Shown piece after piece: positions 8,601-44,920 of a DNA stretch of 64,000 nucleotides. The stretch covers positions 20,795-84,794 of the forward strand of contig QKCL01000015.1 in the NCBI GenBank assembly GCA_003246895.1. The letters run 5' to 3'. The notes beneath the pieces were generated by a model. The model did not search any database and was not told the DNA's origin. It saw only the letters and a list, made by a program, of their open reading frames with translations. The DNA comes from Spirochaetota bacterium. GTDB lineage: Bacteria; Spirochaetota; UBA4802; UBA5550. How positions within the stretch are numbered: the stretch's first letter is position 1; every line of letters starts with the position of its first letter. The translations under genes were made by a program, and so were the position numbers.

Positions 8601-9980
8601 GGACTCAGGTTCATCAACAACGGCAAAGACCCTCTTCATGTACAGGACATTATAAACAACAGAAGAATTGATATTTTCGGAAACAAAAATGTGAAGCTTC
8701 TTCTCTCCAACATGGGAAGGCTTTCGGTTGAACTTCTCGCAGCCTCACTGAGAGGTATCGGAATAAATTCAGAAGCAATGCCTCTTCCCGATGTATACAC
8801 TCTCCAGGCAGCAAGAAGCTATATGTCAGGCAAGGAATGTCTTCCTTCACAGCTTGTTCTTGGAGCTGCTCTTCAGTACCTGAACTCGGACAAATACAGA
8901 AAGGATGAAACATACCTTTTATTTGTTCCTACAACAACCGGCCCGTGCCGTACAGGGCAGTACTACATATTCTATGAAAACCTTTTCAGAGACCTGAGAA
9001 TAGACAACGTTGTTGTAATCACACTGGACTCTGAAAATTCATACAACGAACTCGGCCAGACTTTCTCAAAAAGCGCCTGGTGGGGAGTCATCGCAGCGGA
9101 TTACATGAAGGATGTTGAAACAGCATTGAGAACATGTGCAGTTGATCCGTCAACGGCCATCGCCAAATACGATGAGCTATGGCAGGACCTAGTTGACATC
9201 GCAGAAGAGAATCCCAAAAAGATGATTCCGGCACTTAAAAAGATTGCTTCAGAAATTTCAAAGATTCCTCTTAAACAGGATGTGAAGGATACACCGAAGG
9301 TTCTGGTTGTAGGAGAGATCTATGTAAGACGGGATGACTTTGCAGTTGATGAACTGGTTCGTCTCATGAGCAAAAAAGGAATCATCGCAAAGGTTTCTGC
9401 AGTAAGTGAATGGATCTACTACACAGACCATGTCAGAAAACACGAACTCATGAAAAGGTATAATCTCCTGCCATGGTACAAAAAACCCTTCTCCAAAGAG
9501 ATGAGGGAGAGAATCGTATGGAAAATTGAAGCCATGTGGAAACACAGTGTGGATAAAAAAGTCAAGGACGCGCTTTCCGCGACAAGACTTATCCCGGGCG
9601 CCCCGCACAACATGACTGAGATCATGGAGAATGCAGAGAAACACTTTGTATCAATGGACCTTGATTCCGAGATTACAATCTCAAGCGGTGTCGCTTCAAC
9701 AGCAATGATGGAAGACTACTCAGGTGTAGTAAACATATCTCCTTTTGCATGCCTCATCGGCCGTGTAATTGAAGGGTTGATCACTCCATGGAGCAGGGAC
9801 AGAAATTATCCGGTCATGTCAGTTGAAATTGACGGAGCAGTTCTGCCTCCAAACATCATCAGCAAACTTGATATTTTCATGCTCAATGTACTTAGATTCA
9901 GGCAGAATCCGGAAAGCCTTAATCTGGTCGAGGAGAATGAGAAATCAGACGATTCAATGTGCAGAAAAATAGTTAAATAG
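5670..9980 (+). CDS. Giant CoA-substrate-specific enzyme activase / 2-hydroxyacyl-CoA dehydratase-like fusion protein (two BadF/BcrA-type ATPase domains plus an HGD-D-like domain)
   Basis: The 1436-aa ORF has two acetate/sugar-kinase-fold ATPase repeats (GINIGSSSIKVV... and GIDGGSTTTKVAL...) with CASGTGEF and CSAGTGSF motifs. A Cys-rich CKACDNMCP segment follows. Confidence 0.65.
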   Translation: MYSLGINIGSSSIKVVLMDEEKVLWNRVVAHEGDFLNTLKNVISYDEIPSDTKVLVTGTEGRYLVNANNVIESICIEEAIRDLNLNVNAAVSLGGENFIVYTTDENGKIITSFSGNKCASGTGEFFKQQLGRMDMTLDDIANVKETARVYSLAARCSVFMKSDCTHKLNKGEATKDDIVLSLSDVMATKVADFLKRAKIQSGRVLLFGGVTNNRFILKFIKEKLPELEIVVPGEANFIEAYGAALMAKTSGSMLPEEKKLFKKHSIGFGRYPSLQSALGKVKYIEPQRGKIKPGGEYILGIDGGSTTTKVALIDIETDEIVADHYGRTHGDPVQALKNCLIEVKKQIREQIGDEKINITLASTTGSSREILGVFIESPAIYNEIIAHATGTTFFQEDIDTIFEIGGQDAKYVYLKNKVPIDYAMNEACSAGTGSFLEESAAGDLNIKDVREIGDIALKAEEPLKFGEHCSAFINSDIRKAIQYGATKEDITAGIISSIVSNYLNRVVGNRSVGQSIVLQGGVAKNKAVPLAFAMLLGKNITVPPSPELLGCFGVGILAKQKYQDGLLEKQSFDIDKILDTNIVHEREFSCKACDNMCPIKVLNVNGHKYMFGGRCNKYANSRNRKEVDEKQIFNYVDRREELMFRETAPAGDTFIQKKDFVVGIPKAFSVYTLWPFYSWFFHTLGIKTVLSTDIKQEGIAKVESAYCFPAEIAHGAVQDIIDKGVDYIFVPHFRDMPSHVNDVHANFCPITQSLPYYIKKSFTGFPEEKVLAPIITFKYGKNKALEDLYALSSQLGVTRSEIREAFNIAHAKQEEFFATYHKEGVEALEQARKADRPVIAVLGRPYNSFTKDANMGIPRKFTSRGYSVIPFDMLPYEGADIYDNMYWFYGQQDMKAASLLKNEENVYVTYISNFSCAPDSFMLHYVKWIMGTKPFLILELDSHSADAGVDTRIEAFLDIIEGYRLKFSGADEERYDNGLRFINNGKDPLHVQDIINNRRIDIFGNKNVKLLLSNMGRLSVELLAASLRGIGINSEAMPLPDVYTLQAARSYMSGKECLPSQLVLGAALQYLNSDKYRKDETYLLFVPTTTGPCRTGQYYIFYENLFRDLRIDNVVVITLDSENSYNELGQTFSKSAWWGVIAADYMKDVETALRTCAVDPSTAIAKYDELWQDLVDIAEENPKKMIPALKKIASEISKIPLKQDVKDTPKVLVVGEIYVRRDDFAVDELVRLMSKKGIIAKVSAVSEWIYYTDHVRKHELMKRYNLLPWYKKPFSKEMRERIVWKIEAMWKHSVDKKVKDALSATRLIPGAPHNMTEIMENAEKHFVSMDLDSEITISSGVASTAMMEDYSGVVNISPFACLIGRVIEGLITPWSRDRNYPVMSVEIDGAVLPPNIISKLDIFMLNVLRFRQNPESLNLVEENEKSDDSMCRKIVK

Positions 9981-10001
9981 ATAAAAGAAACATAATCTAA
10001 T

Positions 10002-10033
10002 AAAAAAGGGATACCAATGTATCCCTTTTTTAT
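10002..10033 (+). terminator. Rho-independent terminator after the activase gene
   Basis: The sequence is AAAAAGGGATAC-caatg-GTATCCCTTTTTTATT. Confidence 0.7.
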
Positions 10034-10392
10034 TATCCGGTAAATTCAGCACTGCTCAACTTTCCTGAAATATCTGTACTCTGGCACCTGGAAAATTCAG
10101 GGTGTATAGCAGGCTATAATCTTCCTGCCCGGAACACTGAGGGCAATTACATTCTCCGATACTTTTTTATATCTGTCTTCTTTCATATCTATGTCTCTGG
10201 CACCATCACTGCTGATAACTGTATTTTATCTTTTATCGCGATAAATATTAAACTGTTTTGCGTATTTCAGATTTATTCTTATACCAAAATTTTATGTTTT
10301 CTTTCTTCTGTACAATTTATCAAAAATACAACGGTAAATATAGCAAAAAAATAGTATAGTTGATATTATATCAGTAACACATTTTTCCACAC

Positions 10393-10424
10393 AAAAAAGG
10401 GCTGCTATAAAGCAGCCCTTTTTT
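10393..10424. terminator. Bidirectional hairpin terminator; it serves the FecR-like gene on the minus strand
   Basis: The sequence AAAAAAGGGCTGC-tataa-GCAGCCCTTTTTT has A/T runs on both sides. Confidence 0.7.
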
Positions 10425-10449
10425 ACATCGGCTATAAAAAGAGATCATT

Positions 10450-11493
10450 TTACTCGTTCTTTTTGAACATGTTCTTTTTATAGTCCTCCAGATTTTTGAA
10501 GATATTAGACTTATCTTCCTGATATTTGTTCATGATTTTCTCGTAGGCTTCTTTATATTGTGCCTTTATTTTTTGCACTGCTTCATAGCTTTTCTGTTGT
10601 TCACTTCTTACATTCTCAGATTTATCTGCTATTTTTTCAAATCTTTCAGATATATCTTTTCCCTCATAATCCCTTGAAAGATTTCTCATATTCATATTCG
10701 ATGCTTCATTCATCATCATGTTATTTTCAATTTTATCTTCAGCTTGTTCAATAGCTTCACCAGATTTTTTCACATCCTCTTCGGACTTCATTTTTTTTAT
10801 ATTATTTTCAAGGCCGGAAAGATTCTCATTCGATTCCTTGACAGAATCCTCCCACGAATTTATCTGTTTTTCATAACGCTCAGCCTGCTGATCAATATTC
10901 TTTGCGATATCGCTGTTTCTGTTTTTTTCCCAGGAAGATATTGAACCACGGGTTTTTACTCTCTCAGGCATTTCAGAGACCTTTGTCTCAACTGAATAGC
11001 CGGGTTTAAGGTCGACGTTGCCATAACTGTTATCTATAGCCAATCTTCCCTGAGAAAGATCAATCTTCGTATCTCCTCCCTTGCTCACAGCAATATTAAA
11101 TCTTGTTCCTCTAACACCGGCAACTGTTGTGGGTGTATAGAGTTTGTGTTTACCCTTTTTGAGCTTCACAAATTTTCCGCTTATCTGACCGGAAACAATA
11201 GAGACCCCCTCTGAATCCTTTACATTTTCACTCCCGATTTTTACAACAGTATTTGGTTTAATACTGACTTTACTCTTATCGGAATATAGAAGATCAACAA
11301 TGGCTCCACGGCCTGTTTTAATTACATCTCCGTTCCCTACTTTATCCCCCATTGCCAGCTTAACAGTTTTACCACCCCTTACCAAATTTACATCTCCAAG
11401 GAAAAAAGAAACTGTCATACTATATGCAAATACAGGTATAAATAGAAGAAAGGCTGCTATTATAAAAAAGAATCTTACCCTGTTTTTCATCAA
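10450..11493 (-). CDS. Secreted FecR-domain protein with a long charged coiled-coil C-terminal region
   Basis: It has a signal peptide and an N-terminal FecR-like beta region (GDVIKTGRGAIVDL...). Its C-terminal 170 aa are rich in K, E and N. Confidence 0.45.
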   Translation of the reverse strand: MMKNRVRFFFIIAAFLLFIPVFAYSMTVSFFLGDVNLVRGGKTVKLAMGDKVGNGDVIKTGRGAIVDLLYSDKSKVSIKPNTVVKIGSENVKDSEGVSIVSGQISGKFVKLKKGKHKLYTPTTVAGVRGTRFNIAVSKGGDTKIDLSQGRLAIDNSYGNVDLKPGYSVETKVSEMPERVKTRGSISSWEKNRNSDIAKNIDQQAERYEKQINSWEDSVKESNENLSGLENNIKKMKSEEDVKKSGEAIEQAEDKIENNMMMNEASNMNMRNLSRDYEGKDISERFEKIADKSENVRSEQQKSYEAVQKIKAQYKEAYEKIMNKYQEDKSNIFKNLEDYKKNMFKKNE

Positions 11494-11596
11494 TAAGCTC
11501 CAATATTGTATTTATTTGATTATACATTAAGCCTTCTGAAATTACAACTATTTTATAGACTTAATCGCAGTCATATCACCAATAAAGAATGTTTTA

Positions 11597-11965
11597 TCAC
11601 TTCAAAGATAGACCCTTTATTATTATTTCAGCAGTTCCAATATTAGTCGCAAGCGGAATATTATGAACATCACAAATTCTCATAAGCATATTAATATCAG
11701 GGTCATGGGGGTGTTTCCCAAGGGGGTCTCTTAAAAAAATTACAGCTTCAATTTTACCCTCTACAACATCAGAGGCAATCTGCGCATCACCACCGAGCGG
11801 ACCTGATTGAACTCTCCTCACCTGGAGCCCGGCTTTTTCAATATGACTTCCTGTAGTTCCTGTTGCGACCAGATCATACTGTGACAGGAAATCCCAGTGA
11901 TCCTTCACAAATGCAACCATCTCCGCCTTTTTCCCATCATGGGCTATAAGTGCGATCTGCCTCAT
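11597..11965 (-). CDS. mgsA: Methylglyoxal synthase
   Basis: A 122-aa protein with [17 protein letters not shown] and [13 protein letters not shown] motifs. Confidence 0.85.
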
Positions 11966-12079
11966 TTTTCCCTCCTTAATTTGACAATTATCTTTATAAG
12001 GCTTTAGCTTTTATTATCAATTATTATTTATCAATTATTATTTGACACAATGATCCCAAAAAGTTGTTAAAAGAGAGAT

Positions 12080-13303
12080 ATGAGCAAGAAATATGATGTA
12101 ATAATAATCGGAGCCGGGCCGGCAGGACTGTTTGCAGGGCTATCTATTAATGGAAAAAAATTTAAAACCCTTATAATTGAAAAGAAACAGACTCCCGGCA
12201 AGAAACTGCTACTATCCGGTGGCGGACAATGCAATTTCACAAACTCATCTGAAATCAGGGAATTCAACGTCAGATATAATAACAAAAATTTTGTCACTCC
12301 CTCCCTCCGATCCTTCAGCAACAATGATCTGATCGACTTTTTAGATAAAAAATGTTTTAAATCCCTTATCAGGGATGACGGCAAGGTTTTTCCTGAAAGT
12401 GCCAGAGCTTCTGACTTAGCAGACCTTTTCGTGAGGCTCAATATTGAAAACGGTGTAGATATTATCTCTGGCACCGATGTTAAATCTGTTTCAAGAGATG
12501 AGGAATGCTTTAACATTACAACCTCTGGCACCTCCTATAATTCACGATATCTCATAATCGCTACCGGTGGAAAATCATATCCCCAGACCGGTTCAGACGG
12601 CACCGGATTTAAACTTGCGGAGATGCTCGGACATTCAATAACTGTATTAAAACCGTCTCTGGCACCTGTTTTCATTAAAAACCATAAACTCATGGAATTA
12701 TCGGGTATCTCATTTAACAATGCAAAAATTGATCTGTACAGGAACAACACCAAAACCGGATCCTTTACCGGAGAACTCCTGATCACACACAAAGGCTTTT
12801 CCGGTCCCGCAATATTAAACAACAGCAGATATATGGAAAATCTTGACCTTCTTAAAATTTCATTTACCGGAAAAAATTTTGAAGAAACTGACCAGATTCT
12901 TCAGGCAGGAAGAAACAATAGTGGAAAACAAAGTGTTAAAAAATTTTTACAGATTTTAAATATTCCCGAAAGGCTTATACTGTTTATTCTGAATACATTA
13001 GAAATAAGCCCTGGAGCCCAGGTTTCGCAGCTTTCAAGAGAACAAAGAATATCTCTGGCACGTTATCTGTCAGAATACCCATCAATAATTAATATGGTTG
13101 GAGATTTCTCCAGCGCAATGGCTACATCAGGAGGAGTTTTGACTTCTGAAATAAACAAAAAAACAATGGAATCCAGAATATGCCCCGGTTTATATTTCGC
13201 AGGTGAAGTACTTGATATTGACGGAGATACCGGCGGATACAACATTCAGTGGGCCATATCATCAGGCAGGCTTGCTGCAATGTCAATTTCAGGAACAGGA
13301 TAA
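12080..13303 (+). CDS. HI0933-family FAD-dependent flavoprotein (aminoacetone oxidase / BaiN-like)
   Basis: An N-terminal YDVIIIGAGPAGLFAG Rossmann motif and a C-terminal GEVLDIDGDTGGYN motif; length 407 aa. Confidence 0.7.
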   Translation: MSKKYDVIIIGAGPAGLFAGLSINGKKFKTLIIEKKQTPGKKLLLSGGGQCNFTNSSEIREFNVRYNNKNFVTPSLRSFSNNDLIDFLDKKCFKSLIRDDGKVFPESARASDLADLFVRLNIENGVDIISGTDVKSVSRDEECFNITTSGTSYNSRYLIIATGGKSYPQTGSDGTGFKLAEMLGHSITVLKPSLAPVFIKNHKLMELSGISFNNAKIDLYRNNTKTGSFTGELLITHKGFSGPAILNNSRYMENLDLLKISFTGKNFEETDQILQAGRNNSGKQSVKKFLQILNIPERLILFILNTLEISPGAQVSQLSREQRISLARYLSEYPSIINMVGDFSSAMATSGGVLTSEINKKTMESRICPGLYFAGEVLDIDGDTGGYNIQWAISSGRLAAMSISGTG

Positions 13304-13410
13304 AGCGGTCTCTGGCACCAAATCTCCACTTCTCTCCGACCGCGTTCTCTGGCACCAGACTCAAAAACAGTCTATAATTTCCCAAATTATTAACTTTCTC
13401 TGGCACCCTG
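13300..13410 (+). repeat. Three direct copies of TCTCTGGCACC in about 100 bp, immediately upstream of the RAYT gene
   Basis: The copies are GGTCTCTGGCACCAAA, CGTTCTCTGGCACCAGA and CTTTCTCTGGCACCCTG, at about 13305, 13339 and 13394. Confidence 0.7.
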
Positions 13411-13474
13411 CAAAAATATTTCTCCAAAACTTAGTTAGAAAGCGTAAAACAATAAACAGAATTTAAAAAGACTT

Positions 13475-14083
13475 ATGGGACGAAAGCACAGAGAAACAAT
13501 AACAGGCGCAACATATCATATTTTTTCACGCTGCATTTCGAGACTTGATCTCTTGAAAAGCAGCTGGATAAAGGATCTATTTCTGCAGGTCATTTCCGAA
13601 ACACAGGAAAAATATGAATTTGAACTGAATACCGTCATTATACTGGACAATCATTTTCACATGGTAATCAGAACCACCTCTTCCTGTGACACAATTTCAC
13701 TGATCATGCAGAGAATAAAATCTGTTTTTGCAAGGAGATATAACAAAATTCATTCAAGAACCGGACCTTTCTGGAACGAACGCTTTGGACATAAAATAGT
13801 AGAAAAAGCTAAAGATATCGTCAAATACACTATTCACCTGCTCTGGTATGCCGCATACAACAGTGTCCGTAAAGGAACAGTTACTGACCCTAGAAATTAT
13901 AAATACAGTTCAATAAATGCCTATCTAGACAAAACCTTCAAATTCCCTCTCAAAATAACGCGTCACAAAATATTCAAGAATTTAGGACGGACATTTAAGG
14001 AACGGACAGAAAAATTTTTAGAGTATGAGAGCATTTACAAAGAATATTTGTCAAAAAAGACTTTAAGTGACCTTAAATTTTAG
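13475..14083 (+). CDS. tnpA: IS200/IS605-like Y1 (HuH) transposase of the REP-associated tyrosine transposase (RAYT) type
   Basis: A 202-aa protein with a HuH motif (NHFHMVIRT) and conserved YHIFSR and FWNERF blocks, with Tyr-containing helices near the C-terminus. Confidence 0.65.
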   Translation: MGRKHRETITGATYHIFSRCISRLDLLKSSWIKDLFLQVISETQEKYEFELNTVIILDNHFHMVIRTTSSCDTISLIMQRIKSVFARRYNKIHSRTGPFWNERFGHKIVEKAKDIVKYTIHLLWYAAYNSVRKGTVTDPRNYKYSSINAYLDKTFKFPLKITRHKIFKNLGRTFKERTEKFLEYESIYKEYLSKKTLSDLKF

Positions 14084-14402
14084 AAATACACTCATGTCTA
14101 CAGACCAGGCCCTCCCACTACTTCGCTTATTATTGCACCATATCTGAGTCCATTGGCTATGATGTCTGGCCTCAATTTTGTAATAACAGGAGTTGCTTCT
14201 TTAGGACCTTTTAATGTTATGACATATGGACTGCAGTTTGCCTGATTTCAGTTATGAAGGAGACAGGCATGGATGCCTTATGCAAAACTATTAAGAACAT
14301 TCCGTTATGCTTTTTGCAGGCAGTCATCGTGTCTGCACTGCCTTCGATTTCATGATGAAAAGGAGGCGGCTGACACACCCACCTATATCTTACTGCAAAC
14401 CT

Positions 14403-16367
14403 CTAGTTTTCAAAAATCCCCATGAGTTCCCTGTAACTGCGTGAAAGGGACGGCAGGTCCCTTACCCTTACCCCGTCGGGGAGTGATTCAAGAAATGATG
14501 AACCGTACCCCTTTGAAAGAATGCGCGGGTCAAGTACTGCAACTATCCCCTTGTCTGTTTCATTTCTGATGAGGCGGCCCGCACCCTGTTTCATCTTTAT
14601 GACGGCTTCGGGTATCTGAAGATCAAAGAATGAATTCTTCCCCTGCTGTTCAACCTTTTCTATGCGGGCCTTCATTATTGGAGTGTCCGGAACCGAAAAT
14701 GGAAGCCTGGTAATTATTACACCCTTGAGAAGGTCGCCGGGCAGGTCTATCCCCTGCCAGAACGAGTGGGTCCCCATTAGAACTGATCCCCTGTTTGCAA
14801 TGTATGCGGAGATTGCACCTGATGCGCTGAGTTCATCCTGGGAGAATATTCTGTTCTCTATGTTTCTCTGAAGAAGATGTTTTACTGTACGGAGCAGGCT
14901 GTATGATGTGAAGAGCACAAGACAGTTGCCGTCTACTATTCGTATTATCTCCGCTATTACGGACGAGATTTTTTCAGGGAATGATAAGCTGTTGGGCTCA
15001 GGGAGTTCCCGGTCTGTGTAGAGGAGCATCTGTTTTTTGTAGTCAAAGGGTGACTTCAGCATGATGGCCTTCCCCCGGCTGAAACCGACGCGGCCCGAGA
15101 AATAGGAGAAGTCATTCTTAACAGAAAGAGTGGCAGAGATGAACACAGATGATTCATAGAATGAGTATACCTCACTCTGCATTATTTCGTTTATGTTCAC
15201 GGGCCTTGCAATGGCCCTGACATTGCCCAGAAGTTCATCCGAGCTTCTCTCTATCCAGTAGACAAAGGAATCACGGTTCAGGTCCAGAAAGAATTTCAGG
15301 GCCTCTGTATATGCGGTGATCTTGTTCTTTGCAGGTTCAAATTCCAGAACTGTATCCTCTTCGTCAAAGTCATTTTCTGCCCGTACAATGAGTTCAAGGA
15401 ACTGGGACAGGAGCGACAGAAATTTCTGCCCCATGTTGACTTTATGGGTGATGCGCAGAACATTGTTCTTTTCAGGGAACAGGTCACGGAGCTGTTCAAA
15501 GAATTTCTGGCCCTCTTTAAGTATCTTGTCTATGAAGTTTATGGCTTCCTGCTGTGTTATTGTGTCCTTGAATGAATAGACGAGGCCGAACTTCCCCTTC
15601 ACATGGAATCTTGACATTATGTTTGCCAGGAGTTTGTGGTCTATGCTGAATCCAAGCTGACCCGAAGCGATTGTTTCAACCGAGTGTGCCTCATCAAAGA
15701 GTACAGCTTCCGTCACGGGCAGGTATGCCTTGCCTGATGCGACATTTGAAAAGAACAGGTAGTGGTTCATGACCAGAATATCAGACTGAGACCATTCCCT
15801 CTTTGCAGCCTGAAAGGGGCACTGTCTGGAATAGGGACATTTCTGGTGGCTGCATGCGTCGGGGTCACGGTTTATCTCCTCCCAGAACTCTCCGGGGCAC
15901 CCTGTGTCAAAGAATGTGAATATGCGCATTTCAGTGAATAGTCTGGAGATCTTTTTCACAAATATCATGTTTCCCTGGCTGAACTGGCCCTTTTTCACTG
16001 CCTTTTCAAAACGCCTTCTGCATGGGTAGTTGGAGCTTCCTAGGCAGAGTGAATATTTGAAATCAAGTCCAAGCTCCTCCTGGCATATCTTCTGCACTAT
16101 GGGCAGGTCCTTGTCCAGGAGCTGTTTCTGGAGCGCCTTGGTTTCAGTGGATATGGCTACACGCTTCCCCTTTGAGAGACTGTAGAGTATGGCCGGAAAA
16201 AGGTATGCCATGCTCTTGCCTGTACCGGTCCCTGCCTCAACGATTCCGTTTTCCGAAGATTCAAGGCGGTCCAGTATGAATTGTGCCATTCTGAGCTGGC
16301 TCTCCCTGTACCTGTATGAGGGCAGGTTCCGGTCGAGTGAGCCTGATGTTTTAAAGATATTGTCCAT
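14403..16367 (-). CDS. dinG: ATP-dependent DNA helicase, DinG/Rad3 (XPD-like) family
   Basis: A Walker A motif (AGTGTGKS), a DEAH-like FDEAHS box and an Fe-S Cys cluster (C...CPYSRQCPF), followed by a C-terminal helicase-C_2 region. Confidence 0.7.
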   Translation of the reverse strand: MDNIFKTSGSLDRNLPSYRYRESQLRMAQFILDRLESSENGIVEAGTGTGKSMAYLFPAILYSLSKGKRVAISTETKALQKQLLDKDLPIVQKICQEELGLDFKYSLCLGSSNYPCRRRFEKAVKKGQFSQGNMIFVKKISRLFTEMRIFTFFDTGCPGEFWEEINRDPDACSHQKCPYSRQCPFQAAKREWSQSDILVMNHYLFFSNVASGKAYLPVTEAVLFDEAHSVETIASGQLGFSIDHKLLANIMSRFHVKGKFGLVYSFKDTITQQEAINFIDKILKEGQKFFEQLRDLFPEKNNVLRITHKVNMGQKFLSLLSQFLELIVRAENDFDEEDTVLEFEPAKNKITAYTEALKFFLDLNRDSFVYWIERSSDELLGNVRAIARPVNINEIMQSEVYSFYESSVFISATLSVKNDFSYFSGRVGFSRGKAIMLKSPFDYKKQMLLYTDRELPEPNSLSFPEKISSVIAEIIRIVDGNCLVLFTSYSLLRTVKHLLQRNIENRIFSQDELSASGAISAYIANRGSVLMGTHSFWQGIDLPGDLLKGVIITRLPFSVPDTPIMKARIEKVEQQGKNSFFDLQIPEAVIKMKQGAGRLIRNETDKGIVAVLDPRILSKGYGSSFLESLPDGVRVRDLPSLSRSYRELMGIFEN

Positions 16368-16396
16368 TAAGGATGAATCGTGCCTTCCTGAAAATT

Positions 16397-16867
16397 TTAT
16401 CTCTTTGTATTTCTCCTGATAAATTCAGCAAGGCCTTTTTTGATTATTATGAACAGTACAATAAATATGATGAGGGCAATGACAGGGAAAAGATATGCCA
16501 GAATGTTCGGGTTATCCATGAACCGGTCGATCTCCTTCCCGAACTTCTCTTTTATTGTTATTACAATGGAGGAGATTATTACTATTGCCACGTATAAAAA
16601 GCTGAATGGGCCGGTTTTTCTGTTCTCCTCCTGTTCTGTATTATTTTCATCTTTCTTTACGGGAATGTCTGAAATACCCTTGGGGGAGGCCTTTCCGTTC
16701 TCATTCCGGGTTGGAAAAATTTCATTCATCTCAGGAAATCTCTCCTTCAGAGAACCTTTTCCCGGAGCATTGAGTCCTCCGCAGTTGCCGCAGAGCACCC
16801 GTTTTGCGCCTTCAGGAGCGCTGAGACTGTTTCCGCAGTATCTGCAGTTAAAATCTATTATCCTCAT
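16397..16867 (-). CDS. Membrane protein with an N-terminal zinc ribbon
   Basis: CRYCGN...CGNCGG pairs, then a TM helix. It lies upstream of the dinG-like gene in the same orientation. Confidence 0.35.
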   Translation of the reverse strand: MRIIDFNCRYCGNSLSAPEGAKRVLCGNCGGLNAPGKGSLKERFPEMNEIFPTRNENGKASPKGISDIPVKKDENNTEQEENRKTGPFSFLYVAIVIISSIVITIKEKFGKEIDRFMDNPNILAYLFPVIALIIFIVLFIIIKKGLAEFIRRNTKR

Positions 16868-16967
16868 AATTTACCACCCCGTTGTTCTGACTGTTTTAAT
16901 ATATTAAATACAGATTCCATTGCCAACCCTGAATGGGGGATAATTTTTTATTGATAAAATCGGTTTC

Positions 16968-18704
16968 ATGAGTATTATAATTTTATTCATATTCAGGAGT
17001 ATTCTTTTGAAATCTTATCTCTCCACAAAAAAAATCATATTTACAGCAGCGGCACTGTTTCTGTTTCAGTGCTCTCTTTTTGCAGACACAGTAAATGATC
17101 AGGAAAAGGCTGCTGGGATTATTACTCTGGCACCGGCACTCTTTACCTTAATTGTTGCGGTAATTTCCAGAAGGGCGGTTCTTTCAGTGGCTGCCGGGGC
17201 ATTTCTGGCTTCTGTTATTTTTCAGTTCAGGTCTGCCGGGGTTCTTCTTGCTCTGCCCTTCGGGATATCGGGCCTCATGTCCGGTATTGTCAGGGCAGTT
17301 GCCGATCCATGGAACTGCGGGCTTCTCTTTTTCTTCCTCTCCATGGGAGGGCTCTATTCGGTTCTGAGCAAATCTGGCGGTTTAAGCGCAATTGCTGCAT
17401 ATATGGAGACCAGATCAAGGTCACAGAGTTCTGCACAGGTATTTGCTTTTCTCATGGGATTCATCACATTCTTCGAGGAATTTGCAAGCCCCATGATAAC
17501 AGGTACGGTAATGGCAAGGGCTTTTGACCGCATGAAAATTTCCAGGGAGAGGCTGGCATTCATCGCCGACTCAATGTCCGTTCCCCTCACGGGCATTATG
17601 ATATTCTCCACATGGACAATGTACGAGATGGGTGTCATATACGCGGCGGGGGAGTCAATGAAAACCGGATTTGATGTAATGACTCTCTTTATAAAGACAC
17701 TGCCCTACAAGATCTATCCTATTCTCATGATTGTCTTTACATTTGTATCGTGCAGGTCTCTGAGGGATTTCGGGCCCATGAAGAGGGTTCAGATCAGGTG
17801 CGCTGAATCAATGCCTGGAGAAGAGCCTGAAAACACGGAAAACGCTGAAGAGAGCACCGGACCTCTTCAGGATCAGTGCACAGTTCCACGTATGTCATCT
17901 CTCTTCATACCGGTTGGATTTTTTATTGCAGCTTCACTTGCAGGGCTCATTATGGGAGGCATTAATAATATAAGCAAGTCGGGTGAAATCTCCTCTGTTT
18001 TTTCAAGGAGAGGGATAGTGCACGTCATGGGCTCTGCAGATGTCACCATTGTACTTTTTCAGGCGTCCCTGTTTACGCTTCTTGTTTCGGTTATACTAAT
18101 GCATCTCAGGGGTATTATGAACCCGTCCAGGGCTTTCTCATACTGGGTCAGGGGTGTGAAGTCGGTTCTTCCTGCAGCTCTTCTGCTTGTTGTTTCATGG
18201 GTATTTGTCAATATCATGAAAGACCTGGGTACGGTTGAGTACACTGGAAGAATGATGATAAACTTTTCAGCAGGACCGATGACACCTGTCATGATTTTCA
18301 TGATTTCATTCCTTGCTGTTTTTCTGACAGGCGCACCATTCGGGGCAATGGCCTTCATGCTTCCGGCATCGGTTGCAGTTGCGGTCATGAGCCCTCTCAC
18401 AATTGAGGTGAACCTTCCCCTTTATCTGGGCGCTTCAATGTCCGGTATCATTATGGGGGAACATTCATCGTTTTTTTCGAACAGCACAATACTTTCATCT
18501 GCCGGGGCAAAGTGCAGGCATGTGAATCATTTTATTACACAGCTTCCCTACTCACTCACAGTGGGGATTATTTCCGCTGTGGCATTTTTTATACCTGCAG
18601 GTTACGGTGTGCCTCTCTGGGTTATTCTGCCCGTATCAGCAGCACTGACCGCAGGTGTGGTACTTATTGCAGGCAGAAGGCCTGAAGGATATGACTATTA
18701 CTGA
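16968..18704 (+). CDS. NhaC-family Na+/H+ antiporter-like membrane transporter
   Basis: A 578-aa polytopic protein with NhaC-like segments (FEEFASPMITGTVMA, SMSVPLTGIMIFSTW). Confidence 0.5.
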   Translation: MSIIILFIFRSILLKSYLSTKKIIFTAAALFLFQCSLFADTVNDQEKAAGIITLAPALFTLIVAVISRRAVLSVAAGAFLASVIFQFRSAGVLLALPFGISGLMSGIVRAVADPWNCGLLFFFLSMGGLYSVLSKSGGLSAIAAYMETRSRSQSSAQVFAFLMGFITFFEEFASPMITGTVMARAFDRMKISRERLAFIADSMSVPLTGIMIFSTWTMYEMGVIYAAGESMKTGFDVMTLFIKTLPYKIYPILMIVFTFVSCRSLRDFGPMKRVQIRCAESMPGEEPENTENAEESTGPLQDQCTVPRMSSLFIPVGFFIAASLAGLIMGGINNISKSGEISSVFSRRGIVHVMGSADVTIVLFQASLFTLLVSVILMHLRGIMNPSRAFSYWVRGVKSVLPAALLLVVSWVFVNIMKDLGTVEYTGRMMINFSAGPMTPVMIFMISFLAVFLTGAPFGAMAFMLPASVAVAVMSPLTIEVNLPLYLGASMSGIIMGEHSSFFSNSTILSSAGAKCRHVNHFITQLPYSLTVGIISAVAFFIPAGYGVPLWVILPVSAALTAGVVLIAGRRPEGYDYY

Positions 18705-41362: not shown

Positions 41363-42583
41363 GTGGCTAAATTTAATTCGATGTACAGAAACCTGAGACT
41401 GTTTATTATAATCTTCTTTTTATCTTTTATCTCATGCTCCGGCGGGTCAGGAGATGTAAATCCCCATGCATATACTCTCCCTGACTGCTACAGAACCCTT
41501 GACGAAATAGATGAATTTATCGACACAACGGCGAATGATTACCCCTCAATCGTTTCTGTGAAGACACTTGGTTACAGCGTGTCCGGAAGGGCAATCAGGT
41601 GTATAATAATCTCCGACAACCCTGACTCTTTTGAAAATGAACCATGTGTGCGTTTGACAGGCGGAATTCACGGAAATGAACCGGTCGGTGTGGAGCTTGT
41701 TCTCAGGTATGCACAATATCTTACGGAAAATTATGCAGCCGACAGCACAGTAAAGGGACTTGTTGACAGCAGATATATTGTCATTGTGCCTGTTCTTAAT
41801 CCTGACGGCTATGTCTCCGGCACCAGATATAACGCAAATTACGTTGACCTTAACCGGAATTTTGACAGCGACTATTATGTTCCCGGGGGAATTTACGGTT
41901 CCGCAGCTTTTTCCGAGCCAGAAAGCCGGGCCATAAGGGATATGATAAGCGACAGGGTGATTCACAGCTCCATTACTTTCCATTCGGGTGAAGTCATTGT
42001 TAACCTTCCATTTGATTACGGCAGGGGGAGTATGGGCGTGCTGCCCGGAGAGAATGATTTCGTAAAATATATGGGCAAGGCATACAGCATGGCCGGAACC
42101 AGTCCATACATATTCAAGGAAAATCCGGATCTATACGATTCAGCCTATGTCGAGGATGGTGTCATAAACGGCGGTGACTGGTATGTAATTACAGGATCTC
42201 TCCAGGACTGGAGCTACCTTGAATACGGATGCCTTGATATTACAGTTGAGGTGGCGCTTTCCGACCCTGAAGATGAAGCTGGACTTGCCGAAGTTTTCAG
42301 CTACAACAGGGACGGCATAACAGCATATATAGAACATTCCGGTTATGGGGTATACGGACGGGTAACAGATTCCGGGGGAAACCCGGTTTCAGGTGTGGAG
42401 GTATATGTTTCGGGCGGGGACCTCATTACAAAAACGGATTTACAGGGGTATTACTTCAAAATTCTTGATGGAGGAGATTATACCCTGAATTTTGTTAAAA
42501 CCGGATATACCTCGGTGTCAGAGACGGTTACTGTCACAACCGGCGGAAGCATTGAACGCAATGTGACCATGAACTCACACTAA
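41363..42583 (+). CDS. M14-family zinc carboxypeptidase with a C-terminal carboxypeptidase-regulatory-like beta domain
   Basis: The zinc-binding region GGIHGNEPVG. The C-terminus (YGRVTDSGGNPVSGVEVYV) looks like a CarboxypepD_reg domain. Confidence 0.7.
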   Translation: MAKFNSMYRNLRLFIIIFFLSFISCSGGSGDVNPHAYTLPDCYRTLDEIDEFIDTTANDYPSIVSVKTLGYSVSGRAIRCIIISDNPDSFENEPCVRLTGGIHGNEPVGVELVLRYAQYLTENYAADSTVKGLVDSRYIVIVPVLNPDGYVSGTRYNANYVDLNRNFDSDYYVPGGIYGSAAFSEPESRAIRDMISDRVIHSSITFHSGEVIVNLPFDYGRGSMGVLPGENDFVKYMGKAYSMAGTSPYIFKENPDLYDSAYVEDGVINGGDWYVITGSLQDWSYLEYGCLDITVEVALSDPEDEAGLAEVFSYNRDGITAYIEHSGYGVYGRVTDSGGNPVSGVEVYVSGGDLITKTDLQGYYFKILDGGDYTLNFVKTGYTSVSETVTVTTGGSIERNVTMNSH

Positions 42584-42646
42584 CAGTGGAATGCCATTTC
42601 CGGTTTCCCAAAGTGAATATCAGTATCTCATAGTGAATATCCCTGC

Positions 42647-42697
42647 CTGATTCTATAAAACCCCGGTCTTAATTAAAATCAAACCTAGGTGAGAGAG
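42647..42697 (+). repeat. Copy 1 of a roughly 48-bp direct repeat that carries an imperfect hairpin
   Basis: The sequence is TTCTATAAAACCCCGGTCTTAATTAAAATCAAACCTAGGTGAGAGAG. Confidence 0.7.
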
Positions 42698-42902
42698 TCC
42701 ATTGGAAATATCCAGAATTTTCAGTATCAGTTCCGGCCGCCTGCTGTCATCCCGGTTTCACGCAGTGAAGACCGGGATCTTATACCTGATGTTCAGGGCT
42801 TGCAAATCAAATTATGGTGAAATATAGTCATGGCTTTTTAGATTTAATATTATCTGCCGTCGTATTAATAATATGCAAAACCAGAATTACTACGTTTATA
42901 TA

Positions 42903-43166
42903 ATGACAAATAAGTATAATTCCGTTTTATATGCAGGAGTAACGAACAATCTGCCCAGAAGAATATACGAACATAAAAATCAAATAACTCAGGGATTTAC
43001 CTTCATTTATAACTGTAAAAAACTGGTCTGATATGAGATTCATCATGATGTCCGTTCTGCCATCAAAAGAGAGAAACAAATTAAAAGGTGGAAGAGGGTC
43101 TATAAACTTAACCTGATATCATTATTAAACCCTGACTGGAAAGATTTATATGAATCTATTCTATAA
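42903..43166 (+). pseudogene. GIY-YIG nuclease family gene (YhbQ/UPF0213-like) broken by one in-frame TGA at codon 43
   Basis: The translation is MTNKYNSVLYAGVTNNLPRRIYEHK...KKLV-TGA-YEIHHDVRSAIKREKQIKRWKRVYKLNLISL. The TGA at 43029-43031 falls where homologues usually have W or Y (LVWYE / LVYYE). Confidence 0.65.
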
Positions 43167-43205
43167 GACCCCGGTCTTGATTAAAATCAAACCGGGGTGA
43201 CAGAA
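43158..43205 (+). repeat. Copy 2 of the 48-bp direct repeat, with a better hairpin
   Basis: TTCTATAAGACCCCGGTCTTGATTAAAATCAAACCGGGGTGACAGAAG. Stem CCCCGGT/ACCGGGG with inner stem TTGATT/AATCAA. Confidence 0.7.
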
Positions 43206-43251
43206 GTACACTCAATAATGTTTATTGTTTTAATAGTAAGGAAAGTAAAAT

Positions 43252-43335
43252 TGCCGTGAGAGGGACTCGAACCCTCACAGGAGTACTCCCACCAGACCCT
43301 GAACCTGGCGCGTCTACCAATTCCGCCATCACGGC
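43252..43335 (-). tRNA. tRNA-Leu (anticodon CAG)
   Basis: Minus-strand RNA: GCCGTGATGGCGGAATTGGTAGACGCGCCAGGTTCAGGGTCTGGTGGGAGTACTCCTGTGAGGGTTCGAGTCCCTCTCACGGCA. 7-bp acceptor stem, D-loop GGAATTGGTAGA, loop TTCAGGG, long variable arm, TPsiC GGTTCGAGTCC. CCA not encoded. Confidence 0.8.
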
Positions 43336-43346
43336 TCTTAAAGAGC

Positions 43347-44081
43347 TTAGTTGTTAGTCGTTTTTTGCGGAGTCTTTTCTACAAAGGCCTTCATGGTTTT
43401 AACATAAACTGTGTCTGTATTAAAATCATCCTCAAAAACTATCGCATTATTGTTTCTGACCTGAATTTTGTCAATCGTAACTTTTGTATTTTTAGTACTT
43501 ATTGCAATACGCCCGCTGTGGTTCTCGGAAGGCATTTTGCCGGTTAGAACCTTTTCTCCGTCAATGTAAAGCAGTACTGTGTCTTTTTCAAAGCGGATAC
43601 TGGCCTTGTATTTTTTTCCATATTTTAGCCTGAATGATTCAGAGGCCAGTTCTTTGATGAAAATGTTGTTCTTTGTGTTGTATTTAAGAGTCTTATCTTT
43701 CATATCTGAGTGTATAAAGCTTGCCCTGTTTATTCCCCAGAAACCACCTGAAAGCTTTATTGAATAGATGTGGTAAAACCATTTTTTATACGGACTCCTC
43801 ACTGCAAAGGAAATTGAAAATTCTGCAGGTGACTCGTGTCTGTCGTGAACGTTAAAATCGAAGTCTATTGATGAATATTCATCAAATGAATTTAATGAGA
43901 TCAGTGAATTGAGATTTAACAGCTCATAGTAGTGCCATGGTGAAATCCATGACTGGTTTTCAGATAAAGCAGAATTTACAATTTCCCACTTCCCGGAAAA
44001 ACGCTGCCATTTATAATCCGCACTATAAAGAGCAGCGTTAATTGCTAAAATAAATAATAAAGTACTTAATAAATATTTCAT
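43347..44081 (-). CDS. Hypothetical secreted protein
   Basis: A signal peptide (MKYLLSTLLFILAINAALYS); no recognisable domain. Confidence 0.35.
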   Translation of the reverse strand: MKYLLSTLLFILAINAALYSADYKWQRFSGKWEIVNSALSENQSWISPWHYYELLNLNSLISLNSFDEYSSIDFDFNVHDRHESPAEFSISFAVRSPYKKWFYHIYSIKLSGGFWGINRASFIHSDMKDKTLKYNTKNNIFIKELASESFRLKYGKKYKASIRFEKDTVLLYIDGEKVLTGKMPSENHSGRIAISTKNTKVTIDKIQVRNNNAIVFEDDFNTDTVYVKTMKAFVEKTPQKTTNN

Positions 44082-44085
44082 GTAC

Positions 44086-44460
44086 TTATTTTGCAGTAGT
44101 TCCATCAAAAGCTAATGTAGCAGAAGTATTTTCTGAAATGGTGGCATCGGTTCCTAAAATGGTAGCATTCTCACTGCCAGTACCTGTTAGATTGATTGTG
44201 GCAGTATCTCCAACATTATCAAGGCATTCTCCATTTCCGGTAAGTACTGATATGCCTTTGTAAGAAGTTTCACTAGAGCCGGAAAGGGTTCCACCCCAGG
44301 TCTGATTTGTACTTGAACCTGATTTCCATTTTATTTCAGAAACAGAGGATGATGTACTGTTTTTCCATCTCAGGTCTGCCTTTGACCCGTCATCATCTCC
44401 GCATGCTGCAAAGAACAGCGCTGATATAAATAGTGTTAGTGTTAACATTTTTGTTTTCAT
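44086..44460 (-). CDS. Hypothetical lipoprotein
   Basis: A lipobox (FFAACGDD) and a Ser/Thr-rich body; 124 aa. Confidence 0.35.
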   Translation of the reverse strand: MKTKMLTLTLFISALFFAACGDDDGSKADLRWKNSTSSSVSEIKWKSGSSTNQTWGGTLSGSSETSYKGISVLTGNGECLDNVGDTATINLTGTGSENATILGTDATISENTSATLAFDGTTAK

Positions 44461-44805
44461 CTTATTTCTCCTTAATTATGCCTTTTTTTGAGGCTGATTT
44501 TTCATTGTTTCAGGTTTTCTGCTGCAGCCGGTTTCAGGTTCTTGTTAAGTACTCCGGCACCTTGCTGCGGCCTTTCTGTTTTTTATCGGTACTCTGGCAC
44601 CAAAAACAGACCGGTAATTAATTAAATGAATCCATACAAAAGAGTCAATAAAAAATTGGGGTCTATACAGAGTATTTGTATGAGTCGAACAGTATAAATT
44701 CAAGGTCTGATGGACATTGTTAAAAGTGGGTAATCCCTATCTAACATCATAAATAAATCCTCCAGTAATATTATTATCGTCTAATACTGAAGATTTACAC
44801 AGTTA

Positions 44806-44920
44806 CTCTGACACTCCCTCAATTTGATGCTCGGGAGTGCCAATTTGACCCAACTGTGCATCGATTTAACCAAACGGTGCGTCGATTTAGGGAGTGTCAG
44901 GAGAGTGTCAGATTTTTTGT
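44806..44920 (+). other. Structured inverted-repeat element: an 11-bp perfect inverted repeat closing about 70 nt, followed by a T-run. A candidate sRNA or MITE-like element.
   Basis: CTGACACTCCC (44808-44818) pairs with GGGAGTGTCAG (44890-44900). Inside are direct repeats TGCATCGATTTA / TGCGTCGATTTA. It is followed by GAGAGTGTCAG and TTTTTT. Confidence 0.4.

Follow-up and report, generated by a model that had tools for sequence, protein, structure and literature searches.

A 64-kb stretch of DNA from a Spirochaetota bacterium (contig QKCL01000015.1; hereafter the window, in whose positions all coordinates are given) carries a single gene for a 202-residue homolog of Y1 HuH nucleases and transposases, and three exact copies of the 11-mer TCTCTGGCACC, all on the gene strand, lie within the 170 bp before its ATG. 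What is so short a repeat to such an enzyme: the end of a mobile element, a signal belonging to the host, or the DNA on which the enzyme acts? Comparison with homologous loci leads us to favor the last answer: the probable explanation, in our judgment, is a Y1 HuH enzyme with the motif as its cognate single-strand DNA site, a window gene that has become resident, and a local cluster of sites around such resident genes. Specifically, the motif is read as the enzyme's single-strand DNA site because i) motif variants covary with the protein, ii) copies occupy constant positions at both ends of the gene, and iii) copied cassettes have their boundaries at the motif.

The protein is encoded by an intact open reading frame with a Pfam Y1_Tnp match (E 7.7e-13) and carries the HFHMV motif from which an earlier note, made from the sequence alone, had recognized it. 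That note had also assigned it to the RAYT type, and this stands: the protein scores 77.9 bits against the NCBIfam model REP_Tyr_transpos, just below the cut-off of 80, and 32.7 bits against transpos_IS200, for which the cut-off is 55; with the profile of an alignment of 24 homologs, the best relative among solved structures is E. coli TnpA_REP (4ER8); and the AlphaFold (AF2) model (pLDDT 92.8) gives the same structure as its top Foldseek match (4er8_A, E 3e-9, target-normalized TM 0.73), with the ISDra2 and IS608 transposases behind. H60, H62, Y125, and N129 are invariant in the 24 homologs, and Tyr125 lies opposite Tyr115 of 4ER8, which we take to be the catalytic residue, in the YIxxNP helix, so that a catalytic tyrosine is present in the alignment as the earlier note had wished to see checked. 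The tyrosine motif reads W-Y125-A-A-Y-N-S against Y.AYNP in the family, position 130 being usually P and here S; together with the HuH histidines this gives the class 2 Y---NP context of RAYT/TnpA_REP proteins, the motif type being Y---N(P/S) and not the Y---Q of IS200/IS605 subclass 1.1. We conclude that a RAYT-type (TnpA_REP-like) Y1 HuH enzyme, not an IS200 transposase, is supported.

Within the RAYT-like proteins one described group comes closest. Di Nocera et al. 2013 (PMC3733652), in the parts bearing on these genes, describe RAYT-like genes that have inverted repeats, not REP hairpins, on their flanks, name them TIRYT/TIRtrons, and report, from other phyla, repeats that share GGGGWSAS, some of them making up modest families arranged as dimers or clusters. 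In Quentin et al. 2018 (PMC6006769), TIRYT is classified as TnpA_Y1 subclass 2.1, characterized there by NH[VYF]H, the class 2 Y---NP, a Ser-Ser motif, and a C-terminal helix-turn-helix (Bac_DnaA_C, HTH_23, or HTH_28), by the lack of REPs, and by about two divergent copies in each genome. The NH[VYF]H and Ser-Ser features listed in Table 1 of PMC6006769 are present in the window protein as N59-H-F-H62 and Y144-S145-S146 (KYSS here, KY[SG][ST] across the family). No Pfam domain beyond Y1_Tnp, and hence no DnaA_C-type helix-turn-helix, was found in the window protein, whose C-terminal tail is modeled as a single long helix (residues 174-200). A scan of 1.84 billion representative proteins returned 84 clusters at E<=1e-30 within a superfamily of >30,000; the 129 relatives in a large protein collection are mostly 190-200 residues long, 42-68% identical, and from uncultivated Spirochaetota; and the next-closest proteins outside this clade are 260-325 residues long, several with Y1_Tnp plus a Bac_DnaA_C helix-turn-helix domain. 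By these comparisons the window protein is a member of a small clade from Spirochaetota, and the proteins nearest to this clade are the Y1+DnaA_C ones of TIRYT/subclass 2.1; having NHFH, Y125..N129, and KYSS but no helix-turn-helix domain, it is a relative of that subclass rather than a demonstrated member. The closest relative in the genome collection (L004, CAXXNW010000006.1, 57% identity) sits on a 996-kb contig labeled Bacteroidales, while all other loci are from Spirochaetota, and L004 may be a mis-binned or mislabeled assembly, or a transfer.

Does the motif belong to the gene or to the place? We collected homologous loci from metagenomes and, taking a single genome for each species, from genomes (296 relatives, of which 80 loci were kept); the loci derive mainly from metagenome-assembled genomes. 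Their neighborhoods are unrelated from one locus to the next; among 526 clustered neighbor open reading frames no recurrent partner family emerged beyond orthologous synteny and generic ABC ATPases. The motif nonetheless recurs: in most 20-kb loci it is the commonest non-trivial 9-mer, with information limited to 10-12 nt and unconserved flanks. The family form is [A/G/T]CTCTG[A/G]C[A/C]CC, the commonest variant CTCTGACCCC, and the window form T-n-n-CTCTGGCACC. Upstream of the gene the plan is, 5' to 3', a T-run, the motif about 80 nt before the ATG, a second T-run, the box TCGTATA(W)(W) about 45 nt before the ATG, and a ribosome-binding site. By eye from our table, about 50 of 83 loci have an exact copy of the locus's commonest such 9-mer on the gene strand 65-102 nt before the start, the position also held by motif copy 3 of the window; beyond the stop, about 23 loci have an inverted copy at +3 to +57 and about 25 have instead a direct one at about +190 to +370. 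Each genome has essentially one variant, and the variant tracks the protein clade in the protein tree: GCTCTGACCCC in one large clade, ACTCTGAC[A/C]CC in a second large clade, ACTCTGAGCA in a third clade, GCTC[A/T]GAGCC in a fourth, and [T/C]CTCTG[G/A]CACC in the clade that holds the window protein.

The association reaches well beyond the clade. Distant Y1 homologs (26-29% identity) with HAH as their HuH motif and a tyrosine region reading Y-I-L-A-H-G-A-K-E-G-L-V each adjoin direct arrays of aaaa[A/C]CTCTGGCACC that continue into a tail specific to the lineage, indicating that the core motif is used by a far-removed branch of the family too; they lie in stretches with GC 0.62-0.70 (L143 4873-7832, L106 987-1306, L113 6761-12254, L135 2550-2844, and L191 222-401). 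Searches of the literature with motif strings matched only unrelated primer sequences. Of 120 hits in a metagenome scan for motif pairs, 6-7 had Y1 genes, and most were contigs either short or unrelated, among them protein repeats and a 14-nt microsatellite. One metagenome contig of 43 kb (L119) ends in a perfect 14-nt tandem repeat, (TTCTCTGGCACCTG)n at 1-125, whose core is that of the window motif.

The third strand of evidence comes from paralogs. Several genomes have 3-5 Y1 paralogs, some of them nearly identical (96-99%). L064 and L065 share 99% identity over 950 bp, from TTACTCTGACCC to exactly after TTTTACTCTGACAC, and L031 and L034 share 99% over 867 bp, from TTTTTTACTCTGACCCC to GTTACTCTGACAC; the near-identical copies that end at the motif are those of L062/L064/L065, L031/L034, and L025/L038. 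Identity running from motif to motif implies a copied unit bounded by two same-strand copies, with no target duplication. Other members have stayed put: L020, L046, and L053 are orthologous loci from three genomes in which the gene position is kept at 77-81% DNA identity, and a gene and motif copies still in place at that divergence argue for long vertical residence. The window copy is most likely a resident gene as well, no longer mobile, since three same-strand copies stand to its left, whereas the 3 kb to its right have none; this gene lost or never had a right-hand motif copy.

Around the gene the motif is not confined to the two ends. Pooled over 51 loci, with crude calls of open reading frames and a chance expectation of about 0.008 per kb, density is 9.0 copies per kb in the last 200 bp before the gene, about 2 per kb out to 500 bp, 0.5-1.0 per kb at 0.5-3 kb, 0.3-0.4 per kb at 3-4 kb, and 0.05-0.17 per kb at 4-8 kb, a cluster about 4 kb in radius. 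Intergenic density is 3.7 per kb, and predicted coding sequence within 5 kb has 0.42 per kb on either strand. Adjacent copies within 300 nt form 126 direct and 50 inverted pairs, mostly spaced 18-60 nt apart, so that the triple direct repeat of the window is the usual arrangement. No clear orientation rule governs the surrounding copies, which occur on both strands on both sides of the gene and within genes number 68 sense and 98 antisense. The extreme case is L050 (7208-13001), with 28 copies in 5.8 kb around its Y1 gene, 5 of them in a trpG-trpD fusion, 4 in trpE, 1 in apt, and 10 in an rsmG-like fusion, including several inverted pairs 42-150 nt apart within coding sequence. Direct motif arrays also occur up to 10 kb from the gene (L023 6976-7056 and L034 12678-12759, both with periods of about 20 nt; L015 20327-20488, with 36-51 nt) and look like expanded spacer arrays.

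The window fits this pattern. With up to one mismatch the 11-mer occurs 13 times against 0.85 expected, a number reached by none of 100 shuffles, and the core CTGGCACC occurs 12 times against 1.3 expected, every time on the + strand. The interval 10078-17134, 11% of the window, holds ten of the 13 near-exact copies, all on the + strand (binomial P=5.5e-8); three lie outside this 7-kb cluster, and the exact 10-mer CTCTGGCACC occurs just once beyond it. The non-palindromic direct 11-mer had been noticed before in nearby coding sequence; there are four such copies in the upstream HI0933-like flavoprotein gene and one at 17124, and the repeat proves to be family-specific. The copy at 17124 is the sole near-exact one downstream of the Y1 gene within the cluster, 3 kb past the stop. 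A second, weak group about 30 kb off (41814-44815), with no Y1 homolog there, could be a relic of earlier residence, or chance.

How did copies come to lie inside genes? Intragenic REPs, as treated in PMC3733652 and PMC6006769, are in-frame insertions. At the four sites in the flavoprotein gene there is no gap against solved homologs and none against nine orthologs, and in TrpE of L050 two motif copies within the conserved C-terminal block align without gaps to PDB 7bvd; an origin by in-frame 12-nt insertion is therefore ruled out, as there is no gap at any tested site. By these alignments the genic copies in the flavoprotein and TrpE genes demonstrably arose in place by base substitution without insertions or deletions, and are thus not insertion footprints. 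A control is provided by L204, a syntenic locus from another metagenome with five other genes in place of the Y1 gene, which shares the response regulator, BcrAD/DUF2229, FecR, MGS, and HI0933-like genes and, farther on, the DinG gene. Its HI0933-like protein is the closest ortholog of the flanking gene (54% identical). Over 17 kb this locus has a single motif 10-mer, and its orthologous flavoprotein gene is free of the motif. The residues PSLAPVF are common to both, encoded in the window through TCTCTGGCACC (TCT CTG GCA CC) and in L204 through TCACTTGCTCC (TCA CTT GCT CC), so that between these two the window alone uses the codons that spell the motif at 12656-12666; at 12465-12475 the syntenic ortholog has unrelated DNA.

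Once present, the copies are kept. Between L046 and L020, 5 of 6 aligned motif sites are intact although their 60-nt flanks are only 65-83% identical, and between L046 and L053 the count is 4 of 4. For loci with a DNA identity of 77-81%, the expectation in each comparison would be about 0.4 intact sites (P about 1e-6). One of the retained sites lies within coding sequence across all three genomes. The decay over about 4 kb, the substitution-born genic copies, and the copies that keep their positions appear to be new features with respect to what PMC3733652 and PMC6006769 set out for these genes.

The following mechanism would be consistent with these observations. The open reading frame is predicted to encode a catalytically intact single-strand-DNA nuclease/ligase of the TnpA_REP (RAYT) branch, and the 10-12-nt motif would be its cognate DNA site. 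Motif copies bracket the gene, with its probable promoter just inside the left copy; wherever the two end copies share a strand, they mark off a cassette that could be excised or copied and that has undergone recent copying in some genomes; and this same-strand arrangement is what one would expect if a single strand were cut and rejoined at two copies of the motif, by analogy with the "peel and paste" of IS200/IS605. Around resident genes, the motif forms direct arrays 18-60 nt apart in spacers and single copies in genes, written by substitution and then kept, and the window enzyme may still act on nearby motifs. The local cluster would result, we infer, either from an enzyme that acts chiefly close to where it is encoded or from selection for sites there. 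Templated correction between nearby imperfect repeats, of the kind known from template-switch mutation, is a candidate for writing the motif into genes. The bolder proposal that the enzyme, or repair or replication that it triggers on single-stranded DNA nearby, turns near-matches within a few kb of its own gene into perfect motif by templated substitution, again without insertions, would go some way further, and we regard it as rather unlikely.

Several observations weigh against a cognate site of this kind. To our knowledge, characterized Y1 enzymes recognize hairpins, and this motif is non-palindromic, with window copies that are all direct in the cluster and show no significant folding: the 180 nt upstream of the Y1 gene (z=-0.97) and the 319-nt spacer downstream (z=-1.04) fold no better than shuffled sequence, as the earlier note had anticipated in seeing no classical REP hairpins. 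The window gene has no right-hand motif copy for 3 kb, only matches with three mismatches, and the absence of that copy, together with a degenerate promoter box and no clear ribosome-binding site, suggests that its expression may be poor. Of the 8 positions of GGGGWSAS, the published TIRYT consensus, the window variant GGTGCCAG matches only 6. Recently copied paralogs have motif copies around them at about half the density of other loci (0.37 vs 0.72 per kb), though the difference is not significant (P=0.10). Finally, in two related metagenome contigs of GC 0.33 (L136 1711-7590 and L146 294-7018), CCTCTGGCACC occurs 10-12 times over about 7 kb, on both strands and both within and between ordinary genes; the 14 kb fetched showed neither a Y1 gene nor a remnant of one, although the cluster reaches the edge of the locus and a gene may lie just outside, and such clusters may thus not always need an adjacent gene.

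Four other explanations deserve consideration. The strongest is full domestication, in which the host keeps the enzyme and its nearby sites for a local function (single-stranded DNA processing at forks, local recombination, or control of neighboring transcripts) and the genic copies result from ordinary positive and purifying selection. The conservation of site positions over three genomes, one of them in coding sequence, the synonymous positions fixed to the motif, the single copy in the window, and an intact gene in a well-conserved clade are all as domestication would predict; but the lack of a recurrent neighbor family leaves no obvious common target for a local function, the position of the gene varies by lineage and in some lineages it is multicopy and recently copied, and a need for sites only beside the enzyme's own gene is left without explanation. 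We consider it an unlikely alternative.

An ordinary autonomous insertion sequence of the IS200/IS605 type, with the repeats as its ends or target site and the other copies as footprints or remnants of insertions, would explain the near-identical copies that end at the motif and the 3-5 paralogs of several genomes, and same-strand end motifs suit single-strand excision. The window protein, however, falls well short of the IS200 cut-off, is nearer TnpA_REP, and lacks the Y---Q that PMC6006769 tabulates for such transposases; subterminal hairpins, for which the earlier note had proposed a search, were found in neither flank by folding or repeat search; the window has one copy and no right-end motif; gene and motif copies remain in place in orthologous loci at 77-81% identity; and the genic copies are free of indels. 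An insertion sequence of this kind is thus improbable.

We are similarly doubtful that the motif is a host feature, either the site of a host DNA-binding protein or an architectural signal, with Y1 genes inserting where sites are dense. The dense cluster of L136/L146, where the 14 kb fetched hold no Y1 gene, the conserved motif positions expected of host sites, and the presence of essentially one variant per genome would all be in keeping with it. Published TIRYT genes of other phyla, though, are flanked by the same consensus according to PMC3733652. Moreover, in 51 loci whose neighbors are unrelated the motif is densest at the gene and thins out to either side of it, the gene-less syntenic locus L204 lacks the motif in the orthologous gene, distant high-GC homologs also lie beside arrays of CTCTGGCACC, and paralog boundaries fall at the motif. 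As for sigma-54 promoters (consensus TGGCAC-N5-TTGC), we reject them, for although CTGGCAC matches the -24 element, no window copy has GC at a correctly spaced -12, most of the family has TGACCC or TGAGCA instead of TGGCAC, and many copies lie within genes on either strand; chance matches are excluded by the shuffles and by recurrence in about 80 loci, and together these two have next to no probability.

We list the features of the locus below.

Features of the Y1 locus and of the motif copies in the window (number of mismatches in parentheses for the weak sites)
Feature	Position	Strand	Basis or remark
HI0933-like flavoprotein gene, upstream neighbor of the Y1 gene	12080-13303	+	gene map
Y1 HuH nuclease/transposase homolog gene (TnpA_REP-like), 202 aa	13475..14083	+	open reading frame, Pfam, NCBIfam, alignment, AF2, Foldseek
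HuH H60/H62 codons	13652-13660	+	alignment
HFHMV, residues 60-64	13652-13666	+	translation
Candidate catalytic Tyr125 codon	13847-13849	+	alignment to Y115 of 4ER8
DinG-type helicase gene, downstream neighbor, convergent to the Y1 gene	14403-16367	-	gene map
Membrane-protein gene, next + strand gene after the Y1 gene	16968-18704	+	gene map
Motif copy 1, exact TCTCTGGCACC, 5 nt past the HI0933-like gene stop	13309..13319	+	exact match
Motif copy 2, exact, overlaps promoter-like -35	13346..13356	+	exact match
Motif copy 3, exact, 77 nt before the ATG	13397..13407	+	exact match
Motif copy in HI0933-like gene, codes I-S-G-T, exact	12465..12475	+	no gap vs PDB homologs or 9 orthologs
Motif copy in HI0933-like gene, T-S-G-T, 1 mismatch	12522..12532	+	mismatch search, alignments
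Motif copy in HI0933-like gene, S-L-A-P, exact	12656..12666	+	mismatch search, ortholog comparison
Motif copy in HI0933-like gene, S-L-A-R, 1 mismatch	13052..13062	+	mismatch search, alignments
Outlying motif copy, 1 mismatch, intergenic spacer 9981-10449	10078..10088	+	gene map
Outlying motif copy, exact, intergenic spacer 9981-10449	10194..10204	+	gene map
Outlying motif copy, 1 mismatch, in membrane-protein gene (T-L-A-P)	17124..17134	+	mismatch search
GCGTAAAAC, degenerate counterpart of the family's TCGTATA(W)(W) box	13440..13448	+	upstream alignment anchored at the ATG; folds
Hairpin GGCAGT-n12-ACTGCC	14320..14345	+	exists; absent from minimum-energy fold
Weak motif-like sites	41814 (1), 42514 (1), 44551 (2), 44591 (1), 44805 (3)	42514 -, others +	mismatch search

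The TCGTATA(W)(W) box is probably the -10 region of the Y1 gene promoter, to judge from its placement in the upstream alignment. The window has in addition a promoter-like site, CTGGCA-18-TATAAT, at 13349-13378. The upstream alignment shows GGAG before most homologs and no clear ribosome-binding site before the window gene. The hairpin downstream of the gene, to which the earlier note had drawn attention, does exist, but being absent from the minimum-energy fold it is not part of the motif/Y1 system. A repeat search of the window found no hairpins flanking the Y1 gene, TRF found no tandem array upstream of it, and no Rfam family reached threshold in 9900-14500. The spacer with the two outlying motif copies also holds perfect GC-poor hairpins at 9998-10035 and 10393-10424 (stems of 17 bp and 14 bp, 4-nt loops, runs of A and T alongside) that are probably bidirectional terminators; Rfam small RNA matches there are below threshold.

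How does this system compare with those already known? The earlier note had found it unusual that the repeat beside this RAYT is direct, non-palindromic, and also present in coding sequence; the motif is indeed non-palindromic and in part genic, but a class without REP hairpins (TIRYT/TIRtron, subclass 2.1) had already been described. With that class, as presented in PMC3733652 and PMC6006769, the clade shares a RAYT-like Y1 HuH protein with NH(F/V/Y)H, the class 2 tyrosine motif and, in the window protein, a Ser-Ser motif in the proximal tail; the lack of GTAG-headed REP hairpins; modest repeat families in pairs or clusters, with few divergent copies per genome; and short flanking repeats that, in the commonest variant, fit GGGGWSAS. 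Specifically, in comparison with the published consensus only, the fit holds for GGGGTCAG, from the reverse complement of CTCTGACCCC, and for GGGGTCAGAG, the reverse complement of the clade's commonest motif; in about 23 loci, GCTCTGACCCC about 80 nt before the ATG on the same strand is accompanied by an inverted copy 3-57 nt past the stop; and the closest proteins outside the clade carry Y1_Tnp plus Bac_DnaA_C. The clade differs in having no DnaA_C-type helix-turn-helix, a tail of one long helix, and W-N in place of W-E/Q; direct pairs outnumber inverted ones among its neighboring repeats; the window copy is without any inverted partner, besides its poorer fit to the consensus; and decay with distance, genic copies made by substitution, and positional conservation are not mentioned in the accounts of TIRYT given by PMC3733652 and PMC6006769.

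The RAYT/REP systems (E. coli YafM, 4ER8; Pseudomonas RAYTs) provide the best structural and sequence match, with Tyr and HuH aligned, and resemble the clade in single or low copy number, in a gene flanked by its own repeat family, and in the covariation of repeat variant and protein; some inverted doublets (L068, L075, L070) could even fold like REPINs. REPs, however, are imperfect palindromes of 20-40 nt with a GT[AG]G head, genome-wide and extragenic, whereas the clade's motif is a bare 10-12-mer with no hairpin of its own, concentrated near the gene and found within genes without indels, and the window protein stays just under the REP_Tyr_transpos cut-off; no GT[AG]G-headed palindromic REPs flank the window gene.

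Like IS200/IS605 elements (IS608, ISDra2), the clade has the Y1 HuH fold, some members that are copied cassettes between two same-strand sites, and neither classical terminal inverted repeats nor target duplications; unlike them, it has no subterminal hairpins, tnpB, or Y---Q signature, scores under the IS200 cut-off, and in the lineages compared is a long-term resident at one locus. In the IS200 leader the ribosome-binding site can pair with an upstream stretch, and many clade members are similar: in the 65 nt upstream of many of L004-L083 (for example L045, L043, L078, L074, and L037) a CCTCC-like stretch or the CGTATA box can pair with the ribosome-binding region, which recalls the translational control of IS200. 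The leader hairpin signal over these loci is slight (mean z -0.5) and uneven, z<-1.5 being reached in 28% of loci, and the window copy has none. Finally, iterons beside HuH Rep genes of rolling-circle plasmids and CRESS-DNA viruses are likewise short direct repeats just upstream of the gene, tens of nucleotides apart and overlapping the promoter region, but Rep belongs to a different HuH branch; here the protein is Y1 transposase-like and chromosomal, there is no nick-site hairpin, and motif copies reach kilobases into neighboring genes, so that the likeness is a resemblance only.

We wish to stress what such a clade offers. How REPs disseminate is, according to PMC8266576, poorly understood, and the text of PMC3733652 poses the de novo formation of such repeats today as a question. 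Here the material is readable: the motif is very short, orthologous loci allow its copies to be dated, its density falls with distance from the gene, and some genic copies were made in place within conserved enzymes (TrpE and the HI0933-like flavoprotein), where synonymous positions are fixed to the motif. The little-studied TIRYT group is thereby extended to the Spirochaetota, with a testable candidate DNA site. If the enzyme produces the cluster, this would be a new route of repeat birth and would give a single-strand DNA enzyme a cis-acting range; were templated writing true, the result would be a self-reinforcing local cluster of sites reaching into housekeeping genes, a birth of repeats distinct from REP/REPIN transposition. 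If instead selection keeps the cluster, it would point to an unrecognized local function of domesticated Y1 nucleases.

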